Source: Escherichia phage vB_EcoM_phAPEC6
Sequence record: MK817115.1
Length of the DNA stretch: 64,000 bases
Reading direction: 5' to 3' (one strand)
This document shows positions 1-28,053 of this stretch, piece after piece; position 1 is the stretch's first letter; every line of letters begins with the position of its first letter. Under the pieces are notes generated by a model. The model worked only from the letters and a program-made list of their open reading frames with translations. It made no database searches and was not told the origin of the DNA. A program made the position numbers and the translations under genes.

Positions 1-1583
<1,583 letters not shown>

Positions 1584-2934: not shown

Positions 2935-3672
2935 TTATCTATATGAACGAAATCCTTCAGGCAAACCAGGTAGCTTGTCTAATCCTTCGTTCGCACTCAC
3001 CAGCTTTGTGTCGTAATCATCACTGAAATCATCCGTAGCAAGTTTACGCCCCAAGTCTCTCACAAAGTTATCGATAATTTCTTCTTCATCATTTCCTGGA
3101 TGACCTTCAGCTTTCAACTTTTTCCAGAAATATTCATTATAGTCAAATACAAACTCAACTTCATTAGTTTCAGGATCAAGAACAACATCCAAATCAATCC
3201 AAGGTTCTTTACGAAGTGTGTATATTTCCTTAGAATATTCACTTTGTGTGATTTCATCGTAACGATATGCAAATTCAATAGCCTTAAGCCTTTTTTCATC
3301 ACCTTCTGGCATTAACTCAATGATTTCCATATCATATTCTTTTTCTGTAATAACTCCAATACTTAGTTTTGCATCAAGAACTTTAACATCATACTGTTCA
3401 CGAGTAATTTTAGAATATTTTAGTTCAACATCAAGTGCAGCAATTAGATATTCCAAATCTCCAATTACGCTATATTTCTTTTTAATATCCAATTGGGCCA
3501 CTTCAACTTCATATGGAGTTAGATATGTCAATTCAGCAACTTTCATATCAGCTTCATAATCATCATTGTAGTAGTATGCTTTAGCTATCTCTTTTGCCTT
3601 TCCAGAAAGTCCCCAGTGAGCAGGGACCATCCAAAATGGAATAAATTTCTTTTTAGCCATTTTTCTTACCAA
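2935..3672 (-). CDS. Hypothetical protein
   Basis: Complete ORF downstream of GroES-like gene in same operon; start uncertain (ATG 3672 or 3660). Confidence 0.45.
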   Translation of the reverse strand: MVRKMAKKKFIPFWMVPAHWGLSGKAKEIAKAYYYNDDYEADMKVAELTYLTPYEVEVAQLDIKKKYSVIGDLEYLIAALDVELKYSKITREQYDVKVLDAKLSIGVITEKEYDMEIIELMPEGDEKRLKAIEFAYRYDEITQSEYSKEIYTLRKEPWIDLDVVLDPETNEVEFVFDYNEYFWKKLKAEGHPGNDEEEIIDNFVRDLGRKLATDDFSDDYDTKLVSANEGLDKLPGLPEGFRSYR

Positions 3673-3952
3673 AAATCTCTTCGATTTTCATTACATAATA
3701 TGTATCTTCACCGCCACCAAGATCTTCAGTCAGTGGTGTGTTCAAAGATGAACGACCAAACACAACCATATCACCTTCTTTAATATTATGTTCTGCAAGT
3801 TGTCCGTTCGGAAGAATTTTACCTGGACCAACGGAAATTACCATCCCAATACATGGTGGTTCAACATTACCTAGAATAATACCACCAGTACTTTTATTCT
3901 GTGCTTCAATTTGTCGAACAAGAACGTAATCATTAATCATTTTAATTTTCAT
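3653..3952 (-). CDS. GroES/Cpn10-like co-chaperonin
   Basis: NDYVLVRQIEAQNKSTGGIIL and GMVISVGPGKILPNGQ...KEGDMVVF align with E. coli GroES as recalled; ~99 aa; start MKIKMINDY at 3950-3952, coupled to upstream stop (TGA-T-ATG). Confidence 0.7.
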   Translation of the reverse strand: MKIKMINDYVLVRQIEAQNKSTGGIILGNVEPPCIGMVISVGPGKILPNGQLAEHNIKEGDMVVFGRSSLNTPLTEDLGGGEDTYYVMKIEEIFGKKNG

Positions 3953-3953
3953 A

Positions 3954-4160
3954 TCAGTAACCTCCAGTATTTGCAAACCATTTTCCACGGAAATAAAGAT
4001 TAGCACCCTTATCACCTGGAGTGAACACTTCCAACTTCATAGTTTTTTCACCATTACATTTAGGACAATCATGAGGTTCATCACGATTTGCAATTTTAAC
4101 AATTTTTTCCATGCTATGTTTGCATTCTTCTTTTTCACAACGATATGTATATAATGGCAT
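3954..4160 (-). CDS. Small zinc-ribbon protein (FmdB-like CxxxxC...CxxC)
   Basis: MPLYTYRCEKEECKH...HDCPKCNGEK; two Cys pairs. Confidence 0.5.
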   Translation of the reverse strand: MPLYTYRCEKEECKHSMEKIVKIANRDEPHDCPKCNGEKTMKLEVFTPGDKGANLYFRGKWFANTGGY

Positions 4161-4216
4161 TTTGTATTCCTTTACTTTTTAAATCAAACTAATTTGGGGA
4201 ACATAGTGTTCCCCGT

Positions 4217-4224
4217 TATTTATA
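4217..4224 (-). promoter_or_regulatory. T4-type late promoter box TATAAATA (minus strand)
   Basis: Exact tatttata on plus strand, ~57 nt upstream of the zinc-ribbon ATG; would drive zinc-ribbon, GroES-like and 245-aa genes. Confidence 0.4.
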
Positions 4225-4956
4225 TTAGCAGCCTGTTACGTAAAATTTGTATACTGCAATTCCAGTATCTAGTGTTACATTTAGCATACCAGTTTTAGTA
4301 ATACCAAGTGATACTGATTCGGCATTAGATACGCGAGATAATGCTTGAAGTACGCGATCAATATTATAACCAAAACCAAGACCTAATTCACCTTCAGTTT
4401 TAGAAAAAGCTAGAGAACCAACGTGGTTACTTTTGTTTTTCTCACCAACGTGAAAGTATAGGGTGTCGCCTTCAGTATACGGAGTTACAAGAGAACTAAA
4501 AGATTTAAATACACCAGAAAAACTCTTTAGTTCCTGAACTTTTGCTGCACTAGGAATAACCTGTACGTCATATGGTTGTTCATGAAAACGTGGTTGAACT
4601 GGAATAAGTTTTTCAGCTTGTACCATAAATGTAGTGCTTGCATCTTCAGATTTAAATGCCAGACTTTTAACTGAACCATCTTTAACATTTGATGTGATTG
4701 TGGTTCCTTCGGTACTGTATGTTTTTAGAGACATTAGACCCTGAAGAAGACCTAGATTACCTAAGCCAAAACGACCCTGAACTTCAGGAACATCTTCTTT
4801 AGTATATGCTCGCATTACAAGAGTTCGGTCATCTGTGTACGCTTCTAGATATACACGTTGTCCTTCACCACGGTCTTCACTGCTTACTGCAATACAAGAG
4901 AAGTCAATACCACTGGTTGTGTTTACGAGGTCACGTAGTACGTTGCGTAGATCCAT
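4225..4956 (-). CDS. Hypothetical protein (243 aa; possible replication accessory protein, unproven)
   Basis: ATG 4954-4956 with GGAGAA RBS; no diagnostic motif recognised; sliding-clamp idea rests on size and neighbourhood only. Confidence 0.4.
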   Translation of the reverse strand: MDLRNVLRDLVNTTSGIDFSCIAVSSEDRGEGQRVYLEAYTDDRTLVMRAYTKEDVPEVQGRFGLGNLGLLQGLMSLKTYSTEGTTITSNVKDGSVKSLAFKSEDASTTFMVQAEKLIPVQPRFHEQPYDVQVIPSAAKVQELKSFSGVFKSFSSLVTPYTEGDTLYFHVGEKNKSNHVGSLAFSKTEGELGLGFGYNIDRVLQALSRVSNAESVSLGITKTGMLNVTLDTGIAVYKFYVTGC

Positions 4957-5507: not shown

Positions 5508-8500
5508 TTACCAAGTGAAGAATCCATTGTTTACTGACGCAGTACTTTTTTCATGAATACCAATATCCATATCCAAAATACCAAAAATATTCTCTAATTT
5601 TTTAGTTAGAACAATCTCTTCCATTTTTTCAGTATCAAATGGTAGTTCCAAGAACCATTCTGGAAGATACTCAACACAGTCAATTGGATAACCAACAGCT
5701 TTAATTCCCATAGGATTATCTTTTAAGTTACAGACAATTACTTTTGTTCCATCCGTTACTTCTGGTACAGATTTATCATCATAAACTTCACGTAGACGGT
5801 TCCATTGGATACCAGCAAGAACGTGACCAACTTTACACTTACCAGTTAGCTGATATTCAGCCTCTAAATTAGTGTAGTTTTTTACAGTTTTTGGTGAACC
5901 TTTTTCATGTACAGGCATATCCTTAAATACGTCCTTAAACTCACGTACACGCTGTTTTAGCTGTTGTTCACTCTCACCTACCAGTAATGCGATTAGAGTC
6001 TCTTCTAGGAAGTTCTGGATGTATTTTGGCGTGTCTGAGCGTTTAATTTCAAGACCCATCGCTTTGATTTCACCTGGTTTACCATCAATATCTTTACGGA
6101 ACCCATCTTCCCAGTACTTCAGAATTGCATAACGTTTTTTCTTCAAGAATAGGCCACGCGAACCAACCATCTCAAGGTCTGCACCAACAATCTTACCTTT
6201 TTCAATACCAGTGTTGAACATCTCATGCATAAATGATGGGAAAGATTCACCAACTTCTTCACCAATTTTAATATACATATCAACAATCTCTTCTTTAGAT
6301 AGATTATATGGAATACCTTGTTCTTTCAGATAATGAGTTACACTAAAGTAAACTGAGTCAGTATCACCATAAATTACTGAACCACCTTGGTGGTTATATA
6401 CACCAGTAGTAATTTCATTGATACGACTTGCCATATGTTTGGTCATAGAACGTCCAGTTAATGTTACGGATTGACCTAAACGTTTGTCAAAAAAACGAGA
6501 ACCTTTGTTCAATAGTGCACCATATAGACTGTTTAGAAGAATCTTACGAATCTGTTGGTTCTGTTTCCAGAAAGCACTACGTTGTTTGAAGTAATCTTTT
6601 TCTTCTTTAGGACAGAAAATACGACCATCTTTTAGTACTAATCCGTTTTCTACAATCAACTTAGCAACTTCATCCCACTGTCCTTTACCAATTTCTTTAC
6701 GAAGTAAGTATACAGGATCATTATCATGAATATTAGTTCTAAACATTGTACCAGGGGTATAGTTTGATAGTAGTGGTTCAACTTTTTCATAGCCATTAAA
6801 CTCCCAACCATCAGTATACATATGTTTGTAGTCAATGACCATTTTTTGCTGTGCTTTACGTTCAGAATACCATTGAGTTAGAATGTCAGGAATTACACCA
6901 GACTTAGACTTATCAAAAAGTGTTCCGTTTGCACTAAGTACAATAGTACTATCTTCTGCAAAAATAATATCATATAGCTCTTTGCCCGTTGCTTTAAAAG
7001 AACTCCCATCTTCTAAATCAACAATCAATGTTTCTTCTGACTTTTCATGAACCATTGTAAATTCAACAGCAGCAAATAAACCATGCCATGCCGCAGTCCA
7101 ATCTGGTTCAAATGATTTAGATTTAGATTTGTTCTTCTGTTCTTGGATTTTAGCTGCAAGATACGCATCGGTGTAATCTTGACGTAATTGACCAAGAATA
7201 CATTCAGTACTCATACCCAAAGTACGTAGAACAGTAGGGTAAAGAGAGTTAAAGTCAGTACACCCAAGGTCACTTACAAGTCCTAGTACTGGATCTTGTA
7301 CCCATGCACCTGCTGCTTTTGCACTAATTTTCTCATCTTCATCTTCACCATCTTCACCATAATATTCCATTTCTGGATCAAACTCAAGATCATCTTTCGG
7401 TGCTTTGTTGAAAACAACTTCACCACGAGTATGTGCTAAGTTGATAATAGCAGTGTCGATTAGTGCTACTGAACCCATTGTTGTACTGATAAGTACACAT
7501 TCTTTGTGTGCAAGTCGATTGTGTAGGTTGATATAGTCACATTTAGCATCAATCTTTTTAAGAAGAATACTATCCTGTTTAGAATAACGCAAGAAAGTAA
7601 TGTAATCCTCTCTGTAAAGTTTATCCAATGAACCTTCATAGGATACTTTATTTTCTTTAGTTACTTTTTCAGCAATATAATCTAGTTTATAAGATTGTTC
7701 AACTTGACCAGCATGTTTCTTATACAAAGCCAAATAATCAAGATGGACGCGACCTACCAGATCATATGTTTGAACAGTTTTACCAAAGTTGTCTGCTTCA
7801 CGTGAATTTGGTTTTTTATTCCATAAACACCAACGAGCAGTTGTTGCTTCATTGAAGATTTTTTTAGTTCGATTGATCATATATGGAATATCAAAGAATT
7901 CACTATTCCATCCTGAAATAACATCAGAATCATCAATTAAACTAAAGAATTCCATAAACATTTCCTTTTCGTCTGTATATAAAATTACAGTACTGTTAGG
8001 ATCGTTTGTTTCTTCATTTAGTTGGCGAACAATATCTTGTGCTTCATAAATTTCCATATCAGCAGGTGGTAAAGTAAGTACATAATCCTTTCCAGTCCAT
8101 GATTGATATAGAGAAATAGCGGTTACTCGGTTAAACGGGTCTGATGGTGGAGCATAACCAAATTTCTTATGGAAATCAGTCTCGATATCGAAGAACACGA
8201 TGTTCAAATCGGGTGAACCTTTTCCCATATATTCTTTAGCTAATGTTTTAAATGTAATGTTACAGTCACTTTCAAAAATACGTAGACCTTCACTTTTGTG
8301 TTGCTCTACACTTTTATTCATTTGAGCTTGAGTTTGAAACTCAAAATGTTTAGCCATTGTACCATAAACAGTTTTATGTGTTCCTTGTGGGGATTCAACA
8401 TAATATTCATATACTGGATCTAATTCGCGTAGAATACGTTTACCATTCTTACGTTCAACTACATGAAGAATATCACCAGTACGTTTACGTTCCATATAAG

Positions 8501-11883: not shown

Positions 11884-12981
11884 TTACTTAAAGTTATTTA
11901 CAATTTTCAGTACAGATTTTAGATACTTTTCATCAAACGTTTCAGTAAATCCTGACGGCAACTCTTCAGTACTTACTACTCCACTTTCAATGTATTTCTT
12001 TATGAACTTTTCCAACAATAATGGTTGATTGCCATCCTCAAAGTAACGTTCTACCAGTACTTCATGCTCGAACTCAGAATTGCGGCTTTGTTCATTGACA
12101 CGGCGTTTCATATCACCTGTAATTCCATATTTGTACACCGTCTTATCATTATTAGTTAATTTTTGAACATAGAAATATCCAGGTTTTGATGGTTGATATC
12201 CATATTCCCCACATGATGGACATCCTTTACCAGCCATATGTGCTTTTGGTTGTTGGGAGAAGACACCATGAGTCGGACATACAATATCAATATAATTCTC
12301 GCTTAAAGTATATTCAACCAAGCTATAATCATACTTATGGTTATGGATAGGCGACACAAGTTCAATGAAACGTTCAGTGCTTCTTCCACCTTTACCAGAA
12401 CATGTACCGCAGCCAGTTTTACCCTTCAATAAAGTTTGGGCTGAAACAGTCCATTCGTGTTTACCGCGTGTACAGTATACGGTAACTTCCGTCTTATTGT
12501 TAACATATTTGGTATTTGGAAATTCAAACGCATTGCCATAGTTTTCTTTTACTTTTGCGATGAATGATTCAGTACTGTATGCTTCATTTTTATTACATAC
12601 AGGACAGCCCTTACCAGAAAGAAATTTGTTTGGTGTAATTTCAAAGTAATCGTTATGTTCTTCATCAGTGCAGAATAGTGTTACTTTTGATATAGCGTTA
12701 GTGTAATTTAGTTTATCAAATTTGAATTTATCTTTACCAAATTTAGTTTCTACAGTACTGATGAATGTGTCGTTGTTTGAACGCTGTGACATGTTTGAAT
12801 AACATGATGCACATGTACATGCAATGTGACGAAGTGCAGGTTTGGTGTTTTCTTTCCCACACTTGTTACATTTTACTGTTGTTTTACTTGCCTTGAATAC
12901 TAAAGTACTGAAGTCAAATTCTCCATACTTAGCAGTCATTTGGTTGATAAACTCGTCTTTGTTGATACTTACGTTTGGCAT
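11884..12981 (-). CDS. Four tandem Cys/His zinc-binding repeats plus C-terminal GIY-YIG-like module (putative homing-endonuclease-like)
   Basis: Four ~50-aa repeats each opening F-I and ending G-C-x-x-C (GCPVCN, GCGTCSG, GCPSCG) with a C...H...CxxC pattern; C-terminus GYFYVQ...YKYGITGD...RR resembles GIY-(x10)-YIG-R. Confidence 0.45.
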   Translation of the reverse strand: MPNVSINKDEFINQMTAKYGEFDFSTLVFKASKTTVKCNKCGKENTKPALRHIACTCASCYSNMSQRSNNDTFISTVETKFGKDKFKFDKLNYTNAISKVTLFCTDEEHNDYFEITPNKFLSGKGCPVCNKNEAYSTESFIAKVKENYGNAFEFPNTKYVNNKTEVTVYCTRGKHEWTVSAQTLLKGKTGCGTCSGKGGRSTERFIELVSPIHNHKYDYSLVEYTLSENYIDIVCPTHGVFSQQPKAHMAGKGCPSCGEYGYQPSKPGYFYVQKLTNNDKTVYKYGITGDMKRRVNEQSRNSEFEHEVLVERYFEDGNQPLLLEKFIKKYIESGVVSTEELPSGFTETFDEKYLKSVLKIVNNFK

Positions 12982-13121: not shown

Positions 13122-14297
13122 TTACATGAAAGTAACGTTTTTGATAGCGATTTTGCTGTAGTAGTCAGCAGCGTTACCAAGAGATGAAGTACTGTCGGTC
13201 AACTGTACATAGCCATATCTGGTTAGAAAAGTTGTAACGAGTTCCCCAGTGTTAGGGTCCATTACAGTACCAGAAGCCATTAGTGGGATGTATGGGCAAT
13301 AGAATACACCAGCATCAGTTTCCGCATTACCTTTATAACCAATTAGAATATCTTCTGCATCACTAGCATAGGTATCAACGAAAATACGCATAGTGCTGTT
13401 TAGAGTACCTACAAACTTAACGTTAGTTGGTGCTTCGAAAGTACCTTCAGTGGTACGTGCAAAGCTAGAAGTAGTAGCAGATTGTAGAATGGTTAGTGCA
13501 GTTGGGGAAACAACAGCCCAGTTTGCAGCACCACGCTTAGTACGACGAGCAACTTCGTTTGCTTGACGGTTAATTAGAGTTGCTAGAGCAGCGTGCTCAT
13601 CACCAACGAAGGTTGCAACACCAGTAACTTTAGATTGGTCATAAGTTACAGCAGCAGCACCAGGTAGTGCACGTAGACGGCTTAGTAGCTCTTGGTCGAT
13701 TTCTACAGTAACTTCTTGAGCGATTGCAGCCATTAGTTCTGCTTCAACGTCAACACCATGTTGGGATTGAGCATCTTGTGCAGATTCAACAGTCCAACGT
13801 GCAGATAGACGACGAGATTTCGCTTCAACAGTTTCACGTAGAATACGGATGTTAACGCGACGACCCATAGTACCTTCTAGTTGGCTAGTAGGAGCAGCTT
13901 GTGGGTTGCTATTATCCGCATTTAGATCACCAGAGTAAGATTTAGCGATTTTGTATGGAGAAAGCATTTCTTCACCAGCGATTACACCAGGTGCGTTATC
14001 AGCATATTGTACACGTAGGGTGTGGATCTGACCAACTGGACCAGTCATAGGTTGAACACCGATGATTTCGTTAGCAATAACGGTTGGCATTACACGACGC
14101 ATAATTGGTAGAATCACTTTGTTTAGAGTAGCGATGTTACCAGCGGTAGTTGCACCAGAAGTTGCGGATTCAGTTAGCATAACTTTACGATGGTTATCAA
14201 GAACAGTTTCCATTACAGACTTACGAGTACCCTGTAGACCTTCAACTAGTTTCTCTTTTACTGCTACCCATTTGGATTCATTTAGTAGTTGTGACAT
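13122..14297 (-). CDS. Major capsid protein
   Basis: T4 head-gene order (portal, gp67-like, gp68-like, protease, scaffold, this gene); exact TATAAATA box and AAGGAG RBS; strongest codon bias in window; own terminator. Confidence 0.7.
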   Translation of the reverse strand: MSQLLNESKWVAVKEKLVEGLQGTRKSVMETVLDNHRKVMLTESATSGATTAGNIATLNKVILPIMRRVMPTVIANEIIGVQPMTGPVGQIHTLRVQYADNAPGVIAGEEMLSPYKIAKSYSGDLNADNSNPQAAPTSQLEGTMGRRVNIRILRETVEAKSRRLSARWTVESAQDAQSQHGVDVEAELMAAIAQEVTVEIDQELLSRLRALPGAAAVTYDQSKVTGVATFVGDEHAALATLINRQANEVARRTKRGAANWAVVSPTALTILQSATTSSFARTTEGTFEAPTNVKFVGTLNSTMRIFVDTYASDAEDILIGYKGNAETDAGVFYCPYIPLMASGTVMDPNTGELVTTFLTRYGYVQLTDSTSSLGNAADYYSKIAIKNVTFM

Positions 14298-26099: not shown

Positions 26100-27131
26100 T
26101 TATAACGATCTGTAAATTTGGATTAGAAGATTTTTATCAAACATGGGTGAGTCAATTTCCATAATTTGCTGCAACACAATCTCATCAACTGATTCAGTAC
26201 TTTCAAAACTAACACCATCTTCAATTAATTCTGCGATACTTTGCTTGCTCGTTACAACATTAAACTCTCTAATGTTGTAAAGTTTAGTAAATGTATCACG
26301 AATAAAACTAATCTCATCTGTTGTTATTGATATATCAACTTGAACTTTTGATATTGTATTATCTTGAAGATAATAACCAGGATCAGTTAACAATTCTGAA
26401 AGTGTAAATGTTCTATATTTTGGTGCATGTTCCCATGATTTGAAAATAGGTTCTTTACCATGTTCAAGGATCATTACACCTCTTGCATCATCCCATGTAT
26501 CGGAAAAATTATGTGGAAAACAATTACCAGTATAAACTACACGAGTTCCTTTTGAAGTTGTTTTTGACTGCCTTTTATGAAAATGTCCACTAAAAACATA
26601 CTCACAACCACCAAAAGAACCTTCTGTTTCTTTTCCATGATCAGGCATTTCTACCATCTTGTTAAGCAAGTAACCTGGTAACTCTAAGTGACCAAAAACA
26701 TACTTACTTTTTAGTTGAGGTAACAACTTATATTCATCTTCAATCATAAATGGAATGAAAGTACAATCATCAAATGTTGTAATTTCATTAATGAATTCTA
26801 TATTTTCATAAACTTGAGCCATATTGATACTTGTTATATCACGTTTGTTTTTATGATACATATCATGGTTGCCTACTAAAAAATATACTTTTTCAAAATT
26901 ATCATTTAATAATTGAAGAATTTGTAAACCATAGTTTAGTGTTTGGATATTGATATTACTTCTATTATGAAAATAATCTCCCATAAAAACACAAACTTTG
27001 ATATTATTTTTTTTAGCTACCTCAATCATGAATTTAATGAAGTTTAAACAATCTTCATTGTGTTGCTTGCTGTTATTCTTTAAACCTAAATGAATATCAG
27101 TGAATGTAATTGCTTTATCAAACAGAGCCAT
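26100..27131 (-). CDS. SbcD/Mre11-like nuclease (gp47-like)
   Basis: Phosphoesterase motifs DIHLG, GDYFH, GNHD, GHLE, SGHFH; ORF-track start 27149 is TTG; ATG 27129-27131 has AAAGGA RBS. Confidence 0.8.
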   Translation of the reverse strand: MALFDKAITFTDIHLGLKNNSKQHNEDCLNFIKFMIEVAKKNNIKVCVFMGDYFHNRSNINIQTLNYGLQILQLLNDNFEKVYFLVGNHDMYHKNKRDITSINMAQVYENIEFINEITTFDDCTFIPFMIEDEYKLLPQLKSKYVFGHLELPGYLLNKMVEMPDHGKETEGSFGGCEYVFSGHFHKRQSKTTSKGTRVVYTGNCFPHNFSDTWDDARGVMILEHGKEPIFKSWEHAPKYRTFTLSELLTDPGYYLQDNTISKVQVDISITTDEISFIRDTFTKLYNIREFNVVTSKQSIAELIEDGVSFESTESVDEIVLQQIMEIDSPMFDKNLLIQIYRSL

Positions 27132-27957
27132 CTTCATTTTTCCTTTCAATCATGTTCAATTCAATTTCAATTTGACGTGTATGTGATGGCGTAAAGCCAT
27201 GCATTTCAAGTAAATCATCACGTATATTTCGAACATTTTTCTCACTATTCAATATAGAACGAAAACTATTGTTTACGAATGATGTATAGTAAGAGAAAGG
27301 ATTTAGCTGAACTGCTGGTTTATCTTTTTTATAAAGAATGCTCTCTTTAAAGAGAAGTGCGTTTTTAACTAATTGTATTCTTGCATCACCCATCATTTCA
27401 TCTAAGTATGTATAGTTTCTGTAATTAGATTTGTGTGAGATTTCCTCTGCAAGTTTAATGAACATCTTCCCAAGTTCATTTGTAATTTTACCATGAACAG
27501 TACTGAATTCACCAGTTTCAAGGTCGCCTTTCCAGTGAGAACGACAAACTTCATAGAGAATACCTTCATTATCTACAATATAATGCTTGAATGGTTCAAA
27601 GTTAACTCTAGTATCTGGTGGAATATGTTCATCTGTAATAACACGAATAACAACTTCATCAATTGGAACGTCAGTGATAACTAAATTGTGTTCATCTGCA
27701 TATTCTTTAGCTTTTTTAGCACTCATATTTTCCTTTTCACGAATACTATCAAGCATTTCATTGTTCAGTCGTTTAATTCGTGCTGCCTTAGCTTTTTCTA
27801 GTAACTCAGCAGTAATTTCTGACTCATGAAAAACAATATAATCATACATACTATATGATTTGTCTAATAACCAGCAATATGAAATTTTACTTTTTTGTAT
27901 TTCACGAAGTAAATCAGCATTATTGAGATACTTTTTACGCTTTGGTCTATTTGTCAT
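27118..27957 (-). CDS. Possible late sigma factor (gp55-like)
   Basis: N-terminus KKYLNNADLLREIQ resembles T4 gp55 KYNYVNNKELLQAI as recalled; gene order 55-47-46 as in T4; exact TATAAATA late promoters are present elsewhere. Confidence 0.45.
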   Translation of the reverse strand: MTNRPKRKKYLNNADLLREIQKSKISYCWLLDKSYSMYDYIVFHESEITAELLEKAKAARIKRLNNEMLDSIREKENMSAKKAKEYADEHNLVITDVPIDEVVIRVITDEHIPPDTRVNFEPFKHYIVDNEGILYEVCRSHWKGDLETGEFSTVHGKITNELGKMFIKLAEEISHKSNYRNYTYLDEMMGDARIQLVKNALLFKESILYKKDKPAVQLNPFSYYTSFVNNSFRSILNSEKNVRNIRDDLLEMHGFTPSHTRQIEIELNMIERKNEDGSV

Positions 27958-28045
27958 TGTATTTTACTCTCCATGTTTAAATCCAATAGGTACAATCCTT
28001 GTACCATCAATGTTATTATAGCACCAAAAAGCAGTTTGTCCCACG

Positions 28046-28053
28046 TATAAATA
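28046..28053 (+). promoter_or_regulatory. T4-type late promoter TATAAATA for baseplate operon
   Basis: Exact box 35 nt upstream of ATG 28089, with GGAG RBS between. Confidence 0.5.

Follow-up and report, generated by a model that had tools for sequence, protein, structure and literature searches.

Organization of the Locus

The window analyzed here is a 64,000-nt stretch of the genome of Escherichia phage vB_EcoM_phAPEC6 (MK817115.1). It is 100% identical to the corresponding DNA of phages SP27 and E9.1 and ∼99.7% identical to that of PBECO4, and the source is an Asteriusvirus, a RaK2-like jumbo coliphage of the PBECO4/121Q/SP27 group. Strictly, the phage is not T4-like. A promoter box of the T4 late type is indeed present. 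On the minus strand, the window encodes an FmdB-family zinc-ribbon protein (68 aa, 3954–4160), a Cpn10/GroES co-chaperonin (99 aa, 3653–3952), and a 241-aa protein of phrog_13349 (2935–3660), which RefSeq labels "virion structural protein." The three genes are tightly coupled. The GroES ATG at 3952 lies 1 nt past the zinc-ribbon stop, and the next gene starts at ATG 3660, overlapping the GroES stop by 8 nt, an overlap that is invariant in the five genera examined. The co-transcription proposed initially stands. The last gene had been described as a 245-aa ORF; the ORF is real, and the protein that it encodes is 241 aa long.

Upstream of the cassette, the T4-late-type octamer TATAAATA occurs as an exact minus-strand match at 4217–4224, as first reported. 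It begins right after the TAA stop of the preceding gene and lies 57 nt ahead of the zinc-ribbon start codon. This preceding gene (243 aa, 4225–4956, minus strand) is annotated as hypothetical and is predicted to encode a PCNA-like sliding clamp; two sigma70-like promoters, each an 11/12 match, stand ahead of it (5050–5021 and 4983–4955, minus strand). Just past the clamp gene and the promoter box lies a GC-rich hairpin, GGGGAACA-CUA-UGUUCCCC (4196–4214, minus strand; −13.6 kcal/mol, z −2.7). At the other end, a strong bidirectional intrinsic terminator (2898–2929; 11-bp stem followed by UUUUCUUUU; −16.6 kcal/mol, z −4.9) separates the cassette from convergent virion-protein genes, and the cassette's neighbors carry virion-protein labels in RefSeq. 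The wider neighborhood consists of replication genes (DNA polymerase, clamp, RNase H). Farther away, the window encodes a Gp23-family capsid protein (391 aa, 13122–14297) and a gp55-like sigma factor (27118–27957). For all four genes from the clamp through the zinc ribbon and GroES to the 241-aa protein, dN/dS falls between 0.01 and 0.07.

A Divergent Phage GroES

The maximal ORF of the GroES gene spans 120 aa (3653–4015, minus strand); the real gene has 99 codons and starts at ATG 3952, with GGAGG 8 nt upstream of this ATG and the same start position shared by its homologues. The RefSeq model for PBECO4 (111 aa) begins 12 codons too early. The protein is a true GroES homologue, as had been claimed: it matches Pfam Cpn10 (PF00166) over positions 1–92 of the 93 in the profile, with E = 6.5e-17 and a score of 61.8 bits (cut-off 21.1). 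A further match is to phrog_3188, "co-chaperonin GroES," at 8e-28, and the best sequence match in the PDB is Thermus thermophilus GroES (5.7e-12). Identity to Escherichia coli GroES is 39% over 67 aa (E = 2e-14) and 32% over the full length. None of the 13 NCBIfam GroES models, PRK00364 included, reaches its cut-off with the phage protein; the highest score, 54.9 bits, compares with a cut-off of 120, and the cut-offs range from 96 to 136. Because these scores are far under the thresholds, the phage protein is not an equivalog of cellular GroES, and by its sequence it is best described as a divergent phage branch of the Cpn10 family.

Like E. coli GroES (PDB ID code 1AON) and T. thermophilus GroES (PDB ID code 1WNR), the phage protein is a single Cpn10 domain of ∼100 aa with conserved Gly and Val positions. 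Its mobile loop, whose presence had been predicted, occupies approximately residues 15–34 and includes G23-G24-I25-I26-L27. The GroEL-contacting motif of two glycines and three hydrophobic residues is kept in all genera compared; the tripeptide after the glycine reads IIL, LIL, or IIM in five genera, and the phage G24-I25-I26-L27 has its counterpart in G24-I25-V26-L27 of E. coli. The mobile-loop region measures 27 residues, compared with 29 in E. coli GroES and 34 in T4 gp31. Between the VG and GD anchors of the roof there are 17 residues, the same number as in E. coli, whereas gp31 has only 10. Judged from alignment and length, the roof hairpin, therefore, appears to be full-length; it is deleted in gp31 and in CocO (PMC5649160). 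A tblastn search with T4 gp31 found no similarity in the window (E > 1), and the initial view of the protein as GroES-type rather than gp31-type stands. The N- and C-terminal strands used in heptamer contacts are likewise retained. The phage protein differs from bacterial GroES in its loop, which is 2 residues shorter and carries in its distal half a conserved VEPPC segment instead of the flexible Ala/Ser-rich stretch; in a clade-specific 4-residue insertion, DLGGG, near the C terminus; and in its genetic setting, outside any groES-groEL operon in a phage without GroEL.

The GroES proteins encoded by 121Q, PBECO4, and SP27 are 100% identical to this one. The gene is present in all RaK2-like genera, at 47–74% identity and with the same synteny in the others, and dN/dS relative to ph0011 is 0.02. 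PBECO4 gp507, 121Q 615, RaK2 ORF104, K64-1 gp135, CBB_268, and GAP32_262 are all the same gene. Some RaK2-like genera have a phosphoesterase gene inserted upstream and encode a second, more host-like GroES elsewhere. A homologue search with the phage protein returned 24 matches, all of them close phage relatives, and E. coli GroES matched 124 phage records. True GroES homologues are common among phages; a co-chaperonin was found in 165 of 2,178 phage genomes (PMC5649160). RefSeq already names the gene "co-chaperonin GroES" in Asteriusvirus phages, the jumbo-phage gene has been treated before (PMC5259590, PMC5852040, PMC7824862), and one published proposal has jumbo-phage Hsp10 enlisting the Hsp60 of the host in virion assembly (PMC7824862). 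The finding is sound but ordinary, and with both the annotation and the idea of an Hsp10 that borrows Hsp60 in print, it matters little as a discovery. Our literature search found no experiment on any RaK2-like GroES. The cassette is of use as a clean candidate for asking what makes a phage retain a lid of the GroES type, and not one of the gp31 type, when its capsid protein is of the Gp23 type. It also allows the GroES start and the operon boundaries to be corrected and the zinc ribbon and GroES pair to be recognized as an insertion into a replication backbone that runs from the clamp to RNase H.

Promoter Box and Timing of Transcription

The initial annotation suggested late expression of the cassette alongside the capsid genes. 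In the window, the TATAAATA octamer is not more frequent than chance (7 observed, 10.8 expected), but its placement is clearly nonrandom: all seven copies (7/7) lie upstream of a start codon on the same strand, as do 19 of the 20 ATAAATA heptamers. ATAAATA is also the most frequent intergenic heptamer, with 18 occurrences (intergenic by an ORF-based map) compared with 5.3 ± 2.4 in shuffled sequences, and 0 of 1,000 shuffles reached 18. The box family can be written as (N)ATAAATA(A/T). A copy of TATAAATA precedes the Gp23-type capsid gene by 46 nt, boxes of the same kind are found before the baseplate and EndoVII genes, and another, at 28046–28053, is 35 nt ahead of the gp531 start given in RefSeq. 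The gp55-like sigma factor matches phrog_12791 at 3e-154 and phrog_234 at 8e-18. CBB and GAP32 have been described as having ATAAATA as a late motif along with a sigma factor resembling gp55, and no gp33 was reported for CBB (PMC5259590). Since the cassette shares its kind of box with the capsid, baseplate, and EndoVII genes and since the window encodes a gp55-like sigma, late transcription of the cassette is likely on the strength of these sequence signals. The earlier proposal, thus, holds in part: the same box does precede the capsid gene, but it is absent in sister genera, and the timing is something that we infer. Our literature search turned up no transcriptome for Asteriusvirus or other RaK2-like phages; the PA5oct paper contains RNA-seq and does not mention GroES.

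It is possible, although we favor it less, that the cassette is instead the early or middle tail of a replication-gene transcript running from the clamp through the zinc ribbon and GroES to the 241-aa gene and that TATAAATA is an AT-rich string that occurs there by chance. WPEC5 and 121Q have kept the box, ph0011 has the degraded form TATATATA, and four genera (CBB, Munch, Hallingskeid, and K64-1/RaK2) have no box at the corresponding position. The zinc-ribbon gene of most relatives directly adjoins a phosphoesterase gene, which leaves no room for a promoter; this arrangement, without a spacer, was seen in 16 of 18 RaK2-like contigs. Moreover, the clamp, the 241-aa family, and RNase H form a replication module in other phages, and the replication-gene neighborhood speaks for early or middle expression ancestrally. 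Against a fortuitous string, the remaining TATAAATA boxes (6/6), like nearly all of the ATAAATA heptamers, are promoter-positioned, which makes a chance intergenic copy in the right orientation and so close to a start codon unlikely. The box has also been kept in WPEC5 despite dS of ∼0.6–1.2 in the flanking genes.

The two modes of transcription are not exclusive. The hairpin at 4196–4214 has no U-tract on the minus strand and is, therefore, less likely to be a full terminator than an RNA element with a role at the 5′ end, in stability, or in attenuation. For the same reason, the strong sigma70-like promoters ahead of the clamp could also contribute to transcription of the cassette. Hairpins of different sequence occupy the same position in CBB, K64-1/RaK2, Hallingskeid, Munch, WPEC5, and ph0011, and the one in ph0011 shows a compensatory change (GGGGAAT/ATTCCCC). 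We favor late transcription from the box, probably added to read-through from the clamp's promoters.

Zinc-Ribbon and 241-aa Proteins

The zinc-ribbon protein that had been noted initially is genuine. It matches Pfam Zn_ribbon_8 (PF09723; 41.7 bits, cut-off 34.4), the FmdB family TIGR02605 (44.4 bits, cut-off 31.3), and phrog_13665 (5e-40). Its cysteines, C8-x4-C13...C32-x2-C35, are invariant across five genera, its C-terminal tail is conserved (FTxGDKG...GxW...TGxY), and its dN/dS is 0.04. With the FmdB family (TIGR02605/PF09723), it shares an MP(L/I)Y.Y.C N terminus, two Cys pairs, and a C-terminal tail of the G.W..T..Y type that is present in other viral members too; it differs in its first knuckle, which is CxxxxC rather than CxxC. 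To our knowledge, this very large family is uncharacterized, and the label "regulator" is nominal.

For the 241-aa protein, the predicted structure (pLDDT 83) combines helical hairpin repeats ("ITxxEY") with a small α/β domain at the C terminus and a disordered tail, and a fold search with this model gave no match. A profile search collected 670 cluster representatives of the family, with RNase H nearby in 77 of 79 viral loci. The RefSeq "virion structural protein" label may have GAP32 data as its source. In the passage of the CBB mass-spectrometry table that covers these proteins, CBB_270 and CBB_271 are listed and CBB_269 is not; the main text of the RaK2 paper names gp106 and gp107 only. 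We also considered whether the protein is the "kinesin-like" GroES neighbor of virioplankton (PMC5649160) and rejected this assignment: 0 of 80 family loci in IMG/VR have a Cpn10 gene within 4 kb.

The initial annotation suggested that both of these cassette proteins, the zinc ribbon and the 241-aa protein, could be co-factors. It is unlikely that either one, or the two together, would serve the phage GroES as a dedicated partner, for example as a small GroEL modulator resembling T4 NwgI (gp39.2). The zinc ribbon is found immediately 5′ of GroES in 18 of 18 RaK2-like IMG/VR contigs, 0–5 nt apart and in five genera, and to this constant adjacency can be added the invariant 8-nt overlap on the other side, the strong purifying selection on both genes, and the example of T4, in which a small ORF modulates GroEL (Ang and Georgopoulos 2012, as cited in PMC5649160). 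However, the pairing is confined to the RaK2-like clade, whose whole region is syntenic, so that the linkage may reflect inheritance only. The 55 other viral loci with more distant FmdB-type zinc ribbons have no Cpn10 gene nearby. Conversely, other phage GroES genes (the second copies of CBB and EJP2 and those of BcepSauron and Vibrio D93) have neither a zinc-ribbon nor a 241-aa-family neighbor. For the 241-aa protein, a dedicated co-factor role is not plausible and is unsupported, its family being linked to RNase H in viral loci with no Cpn10 gene inside 4 kb. That the zinc ribbon in particular is a functional partner, such as an NwgI-like modulator steering host GroEL or the phage lid to phage substrates, is speculative and strikes us as distinctly unlikely; if true, it would give a member of the FmdB zinc-ribbon family its first function.

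A Proposed Phage Lid for Host GroEL

E. coli GroEL matched 252 phage records by tblastn, and Escherichia does not appear in the organism tally of these matches, despite more than 30 Asteriusvirus records in the collection; the Klebsiella phages among the matches listed have genomes of ∼253 kb and are not RaK2-like. Within the 64-kb window, there is no GroEL or gp31 signal. We consider it likely that the RaK2-like cassette encodes a complete, divergent Cpn10 lid for host GroEL and that it is probably transcribed late. The protein would most likely form a heptameric lid and, as the phage itself lacks a GroEL, dock on that of the host via the GGIIL mobile loop. The GroES gene is translationally coupled to the upstream zinc-ribbon gene and to the downstream 241-aa gene. 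It is very improbable that this Cpn10-fold protein has drifted to a GroEL-independent role, such as a structural or assembly function: its low full-length identity to E. coli GroES, scores under the NCBIfam cut-offs, unusual VEPPC segment, DLGGG insertion, and virion-labeled neighbors could be read in that way, but the GroEL-contacting motif is exactly what all genera keep, the domain is full-length with its heptamer-contact strands, and the CBB GroES (CBB_268) is not among the proteins listed in the CBB_260 to CBB_270 passage of the mass-spectrometry virion table.

The lid proposed for host GroEL would supply or retune co-chaperonin capacity for phage protein folding. The phage co-chaperonins gp31 and RB49 CocO work with host GroEL and are required for folding of Gp23. 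The present phage resembles those systems in its proposed lid for host GroEL, its Gp23-family capsid protein, and its T4-type late promoters. By analogy with T4 gp23/gp31 and RB49 CocO, the best substrate candidate, offered as a guess, is the major capsid protein of the Gp23 family, whose gene lies 9 kb away in the window; this protein is smaller here than in the T4 system. Since the phage GroES has a shorter loop and a roof hairpin, unlike gp31, an enlarged folding cage is not expected.

Predicted Sliding Clamp Adjoining the Cassette

The 243-aa hypothetical gene upstream of the cassette was identified through its structural model. AF2 gave a confident prediction (pLDDT 92.9, pTM 0.89), and a Foldseek search with it returned 505 matches at E ≤ 1e-3. 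In the PDB, PCNAs were matched over the full length at E ∼1e-10 with TM scores of 0.6–0.73, and the best 50 matches were all PCNA. Sequence-level searches with the same protein gave no match. The model shows a two-domain processivity fold across the whole protein, which is, thus, a predicted sliding clamp. The gene adjoining the cassette would, in that case, be the "missing" sliding clamp of RaK2-like phages, an identity that bears on T4-style, clamp-activated late transcription in this group.

A GroES-Type Co-chaperonin

We found that the 99-aa protein encoded at 3653–3952 (minus strand) matches Cpn10 (Pfam) over profile positions 1–92 of 93 (E = 6.5e-17; 61.8 bits against a cut-off of 21.1), bearing out the initial annotation of a true GroES homologue. 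Identity to E. coli GroES was 39% over residues 1–65 (E = 2e-14) and 32% over the full length. The mobile loop is present with its GroEL-contacting motif intact (S-T-G-G-I-I-L, compared with S-A-G-G-I-V-L in E. coli GroES), and the hydrophobic tripeptide of this motif is kept as IIL, LIL, or IIM across five genera. Between fixed anchors, the loop region spans 27 residues, compared with 29 in E. coli GroES and 34 in T4 gp31 (the sequence used was 100% identical to T4 X17657), and the roof-hairpin region spans 17, as in E. coli GroES but in contrast to 10 in gp31. A published account describes deletion of the roof hairpin in both gp31 and CocO (PMC5649160). Because of these loop and roof lengths, we class the protein, as judged by its sequence, as GroES-type and not gp31-type. 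Its score fell under every NCBIfam GroES cut-off, which points to a divergent phage branch; two features are specific to the clade: the distal half of the loop carries a conserved VEPPC segment, and DLGGG is inserted close to the C terminus. Purifying selection on the gene is strong (dN/dS 0.02), and its product is 100% identical to the 121Q copy at a DNA identity of 97%.

The novelty relative to T4 that had been implied for this gene was not sustained, since it is already annotated and phages often carry true GroES homologues: E. coli GroES matched 124 phage records, and a co-chaperonin is carried by 165 of 2178 phage genomes (PMC5649160). A 2.2-kb query around the cassette was 100% identical to Escherichia phages SP27 and vB_EcoM_E9.1, 99.7% to PBECO4, and 97% to 121Q; the source group is the Asteriusvirus jumbo myophages (∼350 kb), which are RaK2-like, not T4. 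RefSeq PBECO4 labels gp508 “zinc ribbon domain-containing protein,” gp507 “co-chaperonin GroES,” and gp506 “virion structural protein”; the cassette protein is thus the already known GroES of RaK2-like jumbo phages. Several RaK2-like genera have a second, more host-like GroES at another locus (up to 47% identity to E. coli), as at CBB 67407–67688 (L163) and EJP2 73120–73410 (L164). The CBB second copy adjoins tyrosyl-tRNA synthetase, and the roof region of CBB_131 is shortened, which recalls gp31. In PBECO4-type Asteriusviruses, the cassette copy is the sole GroES.

The maximal ORF over GroES (3653–4015, 120 aa) opens with GTG. The real start is ATG 3952, because GGAGG lies 8 nt upstream, the ATG falls 1 nt past the zinc-ribbon TGA, the K64-1/RaK2 and Munch homologues begin at the same residue, and the Cpn10 profile match opens at residue 2. 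The GroES stop overlaps the start (ATG 3660) of the 241-aa gene (2935–3660, minus strand) by 8 nt (ATGGCTAA), identically in 5/5 genera examined, and a strong bidirectional terminator (2898–2929, both strands) lies at the 3′ end of the unit. Two existing GroES models begin too far upstream: PBECO4 gp507 (6854–7189 of locus L001, 111 aa) and that of Hallingskeid (3411–3785 of locus L004, 124 aa). The Hallingskeid record also lacks annotation of the 66-aa zinc-ribbon gene present at L004 3290–3490.

Probable Chaperonin Partner and Client

A tblastn search with E. coli GroEL matched 252 phage records. Escherichia was missing from the organism tally of these matches, in a collection holding >30 Asteriusvirus-type records, and the Klebsiella records among the matches listed were ∼253-kb phages, not RaK2-like. 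The 64-kb window gave no signal of GroEL or gp31. With no phage GroEL found, we infer that the partner must be host GroEL. T4 gp23/gp31 and RB49 CocO are established capsid-folding co-chaperonin precedents. Both are also described in PMC5649160, and Iyer et al. proposed that jumbo-phage Hsp10 uses host GroEL (PMC7824862). By analogy with T4 and RB49, the most likely client of the phage GroES would be the Gp23-type capsid protein. At 391 aa, the capsid protein here is much smaller than T4 gp23, a size that would fit a normal-size GroES cage.

Probable Late Promoter and Possible Read-Through

The exact TATAAATA box first noted upstream of the zinc-ribbon gene is present at 4217–4224 (minus strand). 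Octamers in the window were not above chance in number (7 vs. 10.8 expected); each of the 7 is followed 17–57 nt later by a start codon on the same strand, and a start on the same strand also follows 19 of 20 ATAAATA heptamers. Among intergenic heptamers, ATAAATA is the most frequent, with 18 copies within the 5.7% of the window defined as intergenic by its ORF map, compared with 5.3 ± 2.4 in shuffles (0 of 1000 composition-matched shuffles reached 18). Genes with a box in front encode two abundant virion proteins (1584–2887) and another virion protein of 3333 aa, EndoVII, the prohead protease, proteins of the baseplate hub and wedge, and the Gp23-family capsid protein (Pfam 1.3e-89). The window also encodes a gp55-like late sigma factor (27118–27957, minus strand). 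Both the ATAAATA late motif and a gp55-like sigma were earlier described from CBB, of the same phage group (PMC5259590). Box placement, the genes served, the sigma factor, and the CBB precedent make the 4217–4224 box credible as a late promoter.

The box at this position is, however, limited to the Asteriusvirus lineage (the window, 121Q, and WPEC5): ph0011 has TATATATA there, K64-1/RaK2 has TATAAGTA, and CBB, Munch, and Hallingskeid have nothing comparable. A phosphoesterase gene directly abuts the zinc-ribbon gene in 16/18 RaK2-like contigs. Two 11-of-12 sigma70-like promoters precede the upstream clamp gene, and the GC-rich hairpin that follows it (4196–4214) is without a U-tract in the window. 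Read-through from early/middle transcription thus stays in play, either instead of the late promoter or in addition to it. The initial observation holds, and its core reading, a GroES homologue that is probably late-expressed, is reasonable.

The hairpin is conserved across genera in structure, not sequence, with compensatory changes between lineages. Its loop is inverted between the window (ACTAT) and 121Q (ATAGT), and ph0011 carries a compensatory stem change (GGGGAAT/ATTCCCC). The sigma gene is divergent from a virion protein gene (RefSeq start ∼28089), and an exact TATAAATA lies at 28046–28053 (plus strand), 35 nt upstream of the RefSeq gp531 start; a mechanical ORF start at 27999 would bury it within the coding region. 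Two tandem GATAAATAA boxes ∼64 nt apart (1460–1540, plus strand) lie upstream of the paralogous abundant virion protein genes at 1584–2183 and 2198–2887, whose homologues, RaK2 gp107 and gp106, are proposed tail-tube candidates (PMC3622015). The CBB homologues, CBB_271 and CBB_270, have 56–91% mass-spectrometry coverage. Unlike the box before the GroES cassette, both tandem boxes are kept in 5/5 genera examined.

Neighboring Genes

The clamp gene (4225–4956, minus strand) is a 243-aa ORF directly downstream of the DNA polymerase region, labelled “hypothetical” in every record compared. Its high-confidence AF2 model (pLDDT 92.9, pTM 0.89) aligns from end to end with PCNA sliding clamps (Foldseek E about 1e-10, TM about 0.7), and we assign it as a predicted PCNA-like sliding clamp. 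The RaK2 and CBB (PMC5259590) genome papers state that a gp45 homologue is undetectable, and Iyer et al. refer in general terms to PCNA-superfamily clamps in the group of T4-like jumbo phages that they describe (PMC7824862). The assignment is relevant to T4-style clamp-dependent late transcription.

The 68-aa product of 3954–4160 (minus strand) matches Pfam Zn_ribbon_8 and the NCBIfam FmdB family TIGR02605, confirming it as a zinc-ribbon protein. Four Cys are invariant, and the conserved tail at the C terminus is a variant of a motif shared with other viral FmdB-type proteins. GroES comes immediately after the zinc ribbon in 18/18 RaK2-like IMG/VR contigs. Cpn10 was nearby in 0/55 more distant zinc-ribbon loci, and no zinc ribbon adjoined the phage GroES genes compared from elsewhere (in BcepSauron, in Vibrio D93, and at the second-copy loci of CBB and EJP2); the gene upstream of GroES in Vibrio D93, annotated as a transcriptional regulator, had no zinc-ribbon match. 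The pairing is therefore clade-specific and could reflect inheritance alone; a functional zinc-ribbon/GroES partnership, the least conventional reading of these sequences, seems improbable.

In the 241-aa protein, helical “ITxxEY” hairpin repeats accompany a small C-terminal domain that is conserved and a tail that is disordered; no structural match to the protein was found. Its family (phrog_13349, 670 cluster representatives) extends far beyond the RaK2-like clade. Neither Cpn10 nor a zinc ribbon lay near its members in 80 unrelated viral loci (L081–L160); RNase H followed 1–4 genes after the family member in 77/79 loci, and the same clamp family preceded it in 10/80. The window has the same backbone of clamp, 241-aa gene, and RNase H (379–1416), which suggests that the zinc-ribbon/GroES pair was inserted into a replication-module neighborhood. 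A co-factor role dedicated to the chaperonin is not plausible for the 241-aa gene, and the earlier suggestion that either neighbor serves as one gains no support from the clade-specific pairing or from a 241-aa family without Cpn10 neighbors.

Many family versions are short (∼143 aa), with only the C-terminal “EPW...ELDWN..F...GY.G” domain, and the family’s “virion structural” label is odd beside its conserved replication-module place. Elsewhere in the window, a 365-aa HNH-type endonuclease ORF (11884–12981, minus strand; phrog_681, phrog_559) has no counterpart at that position in PBECO4, where coordinates shift by ∼1.1 kb; the ORF, which lies beside the capsid gene, probably represents insertion of a mobile homing endonuclease.
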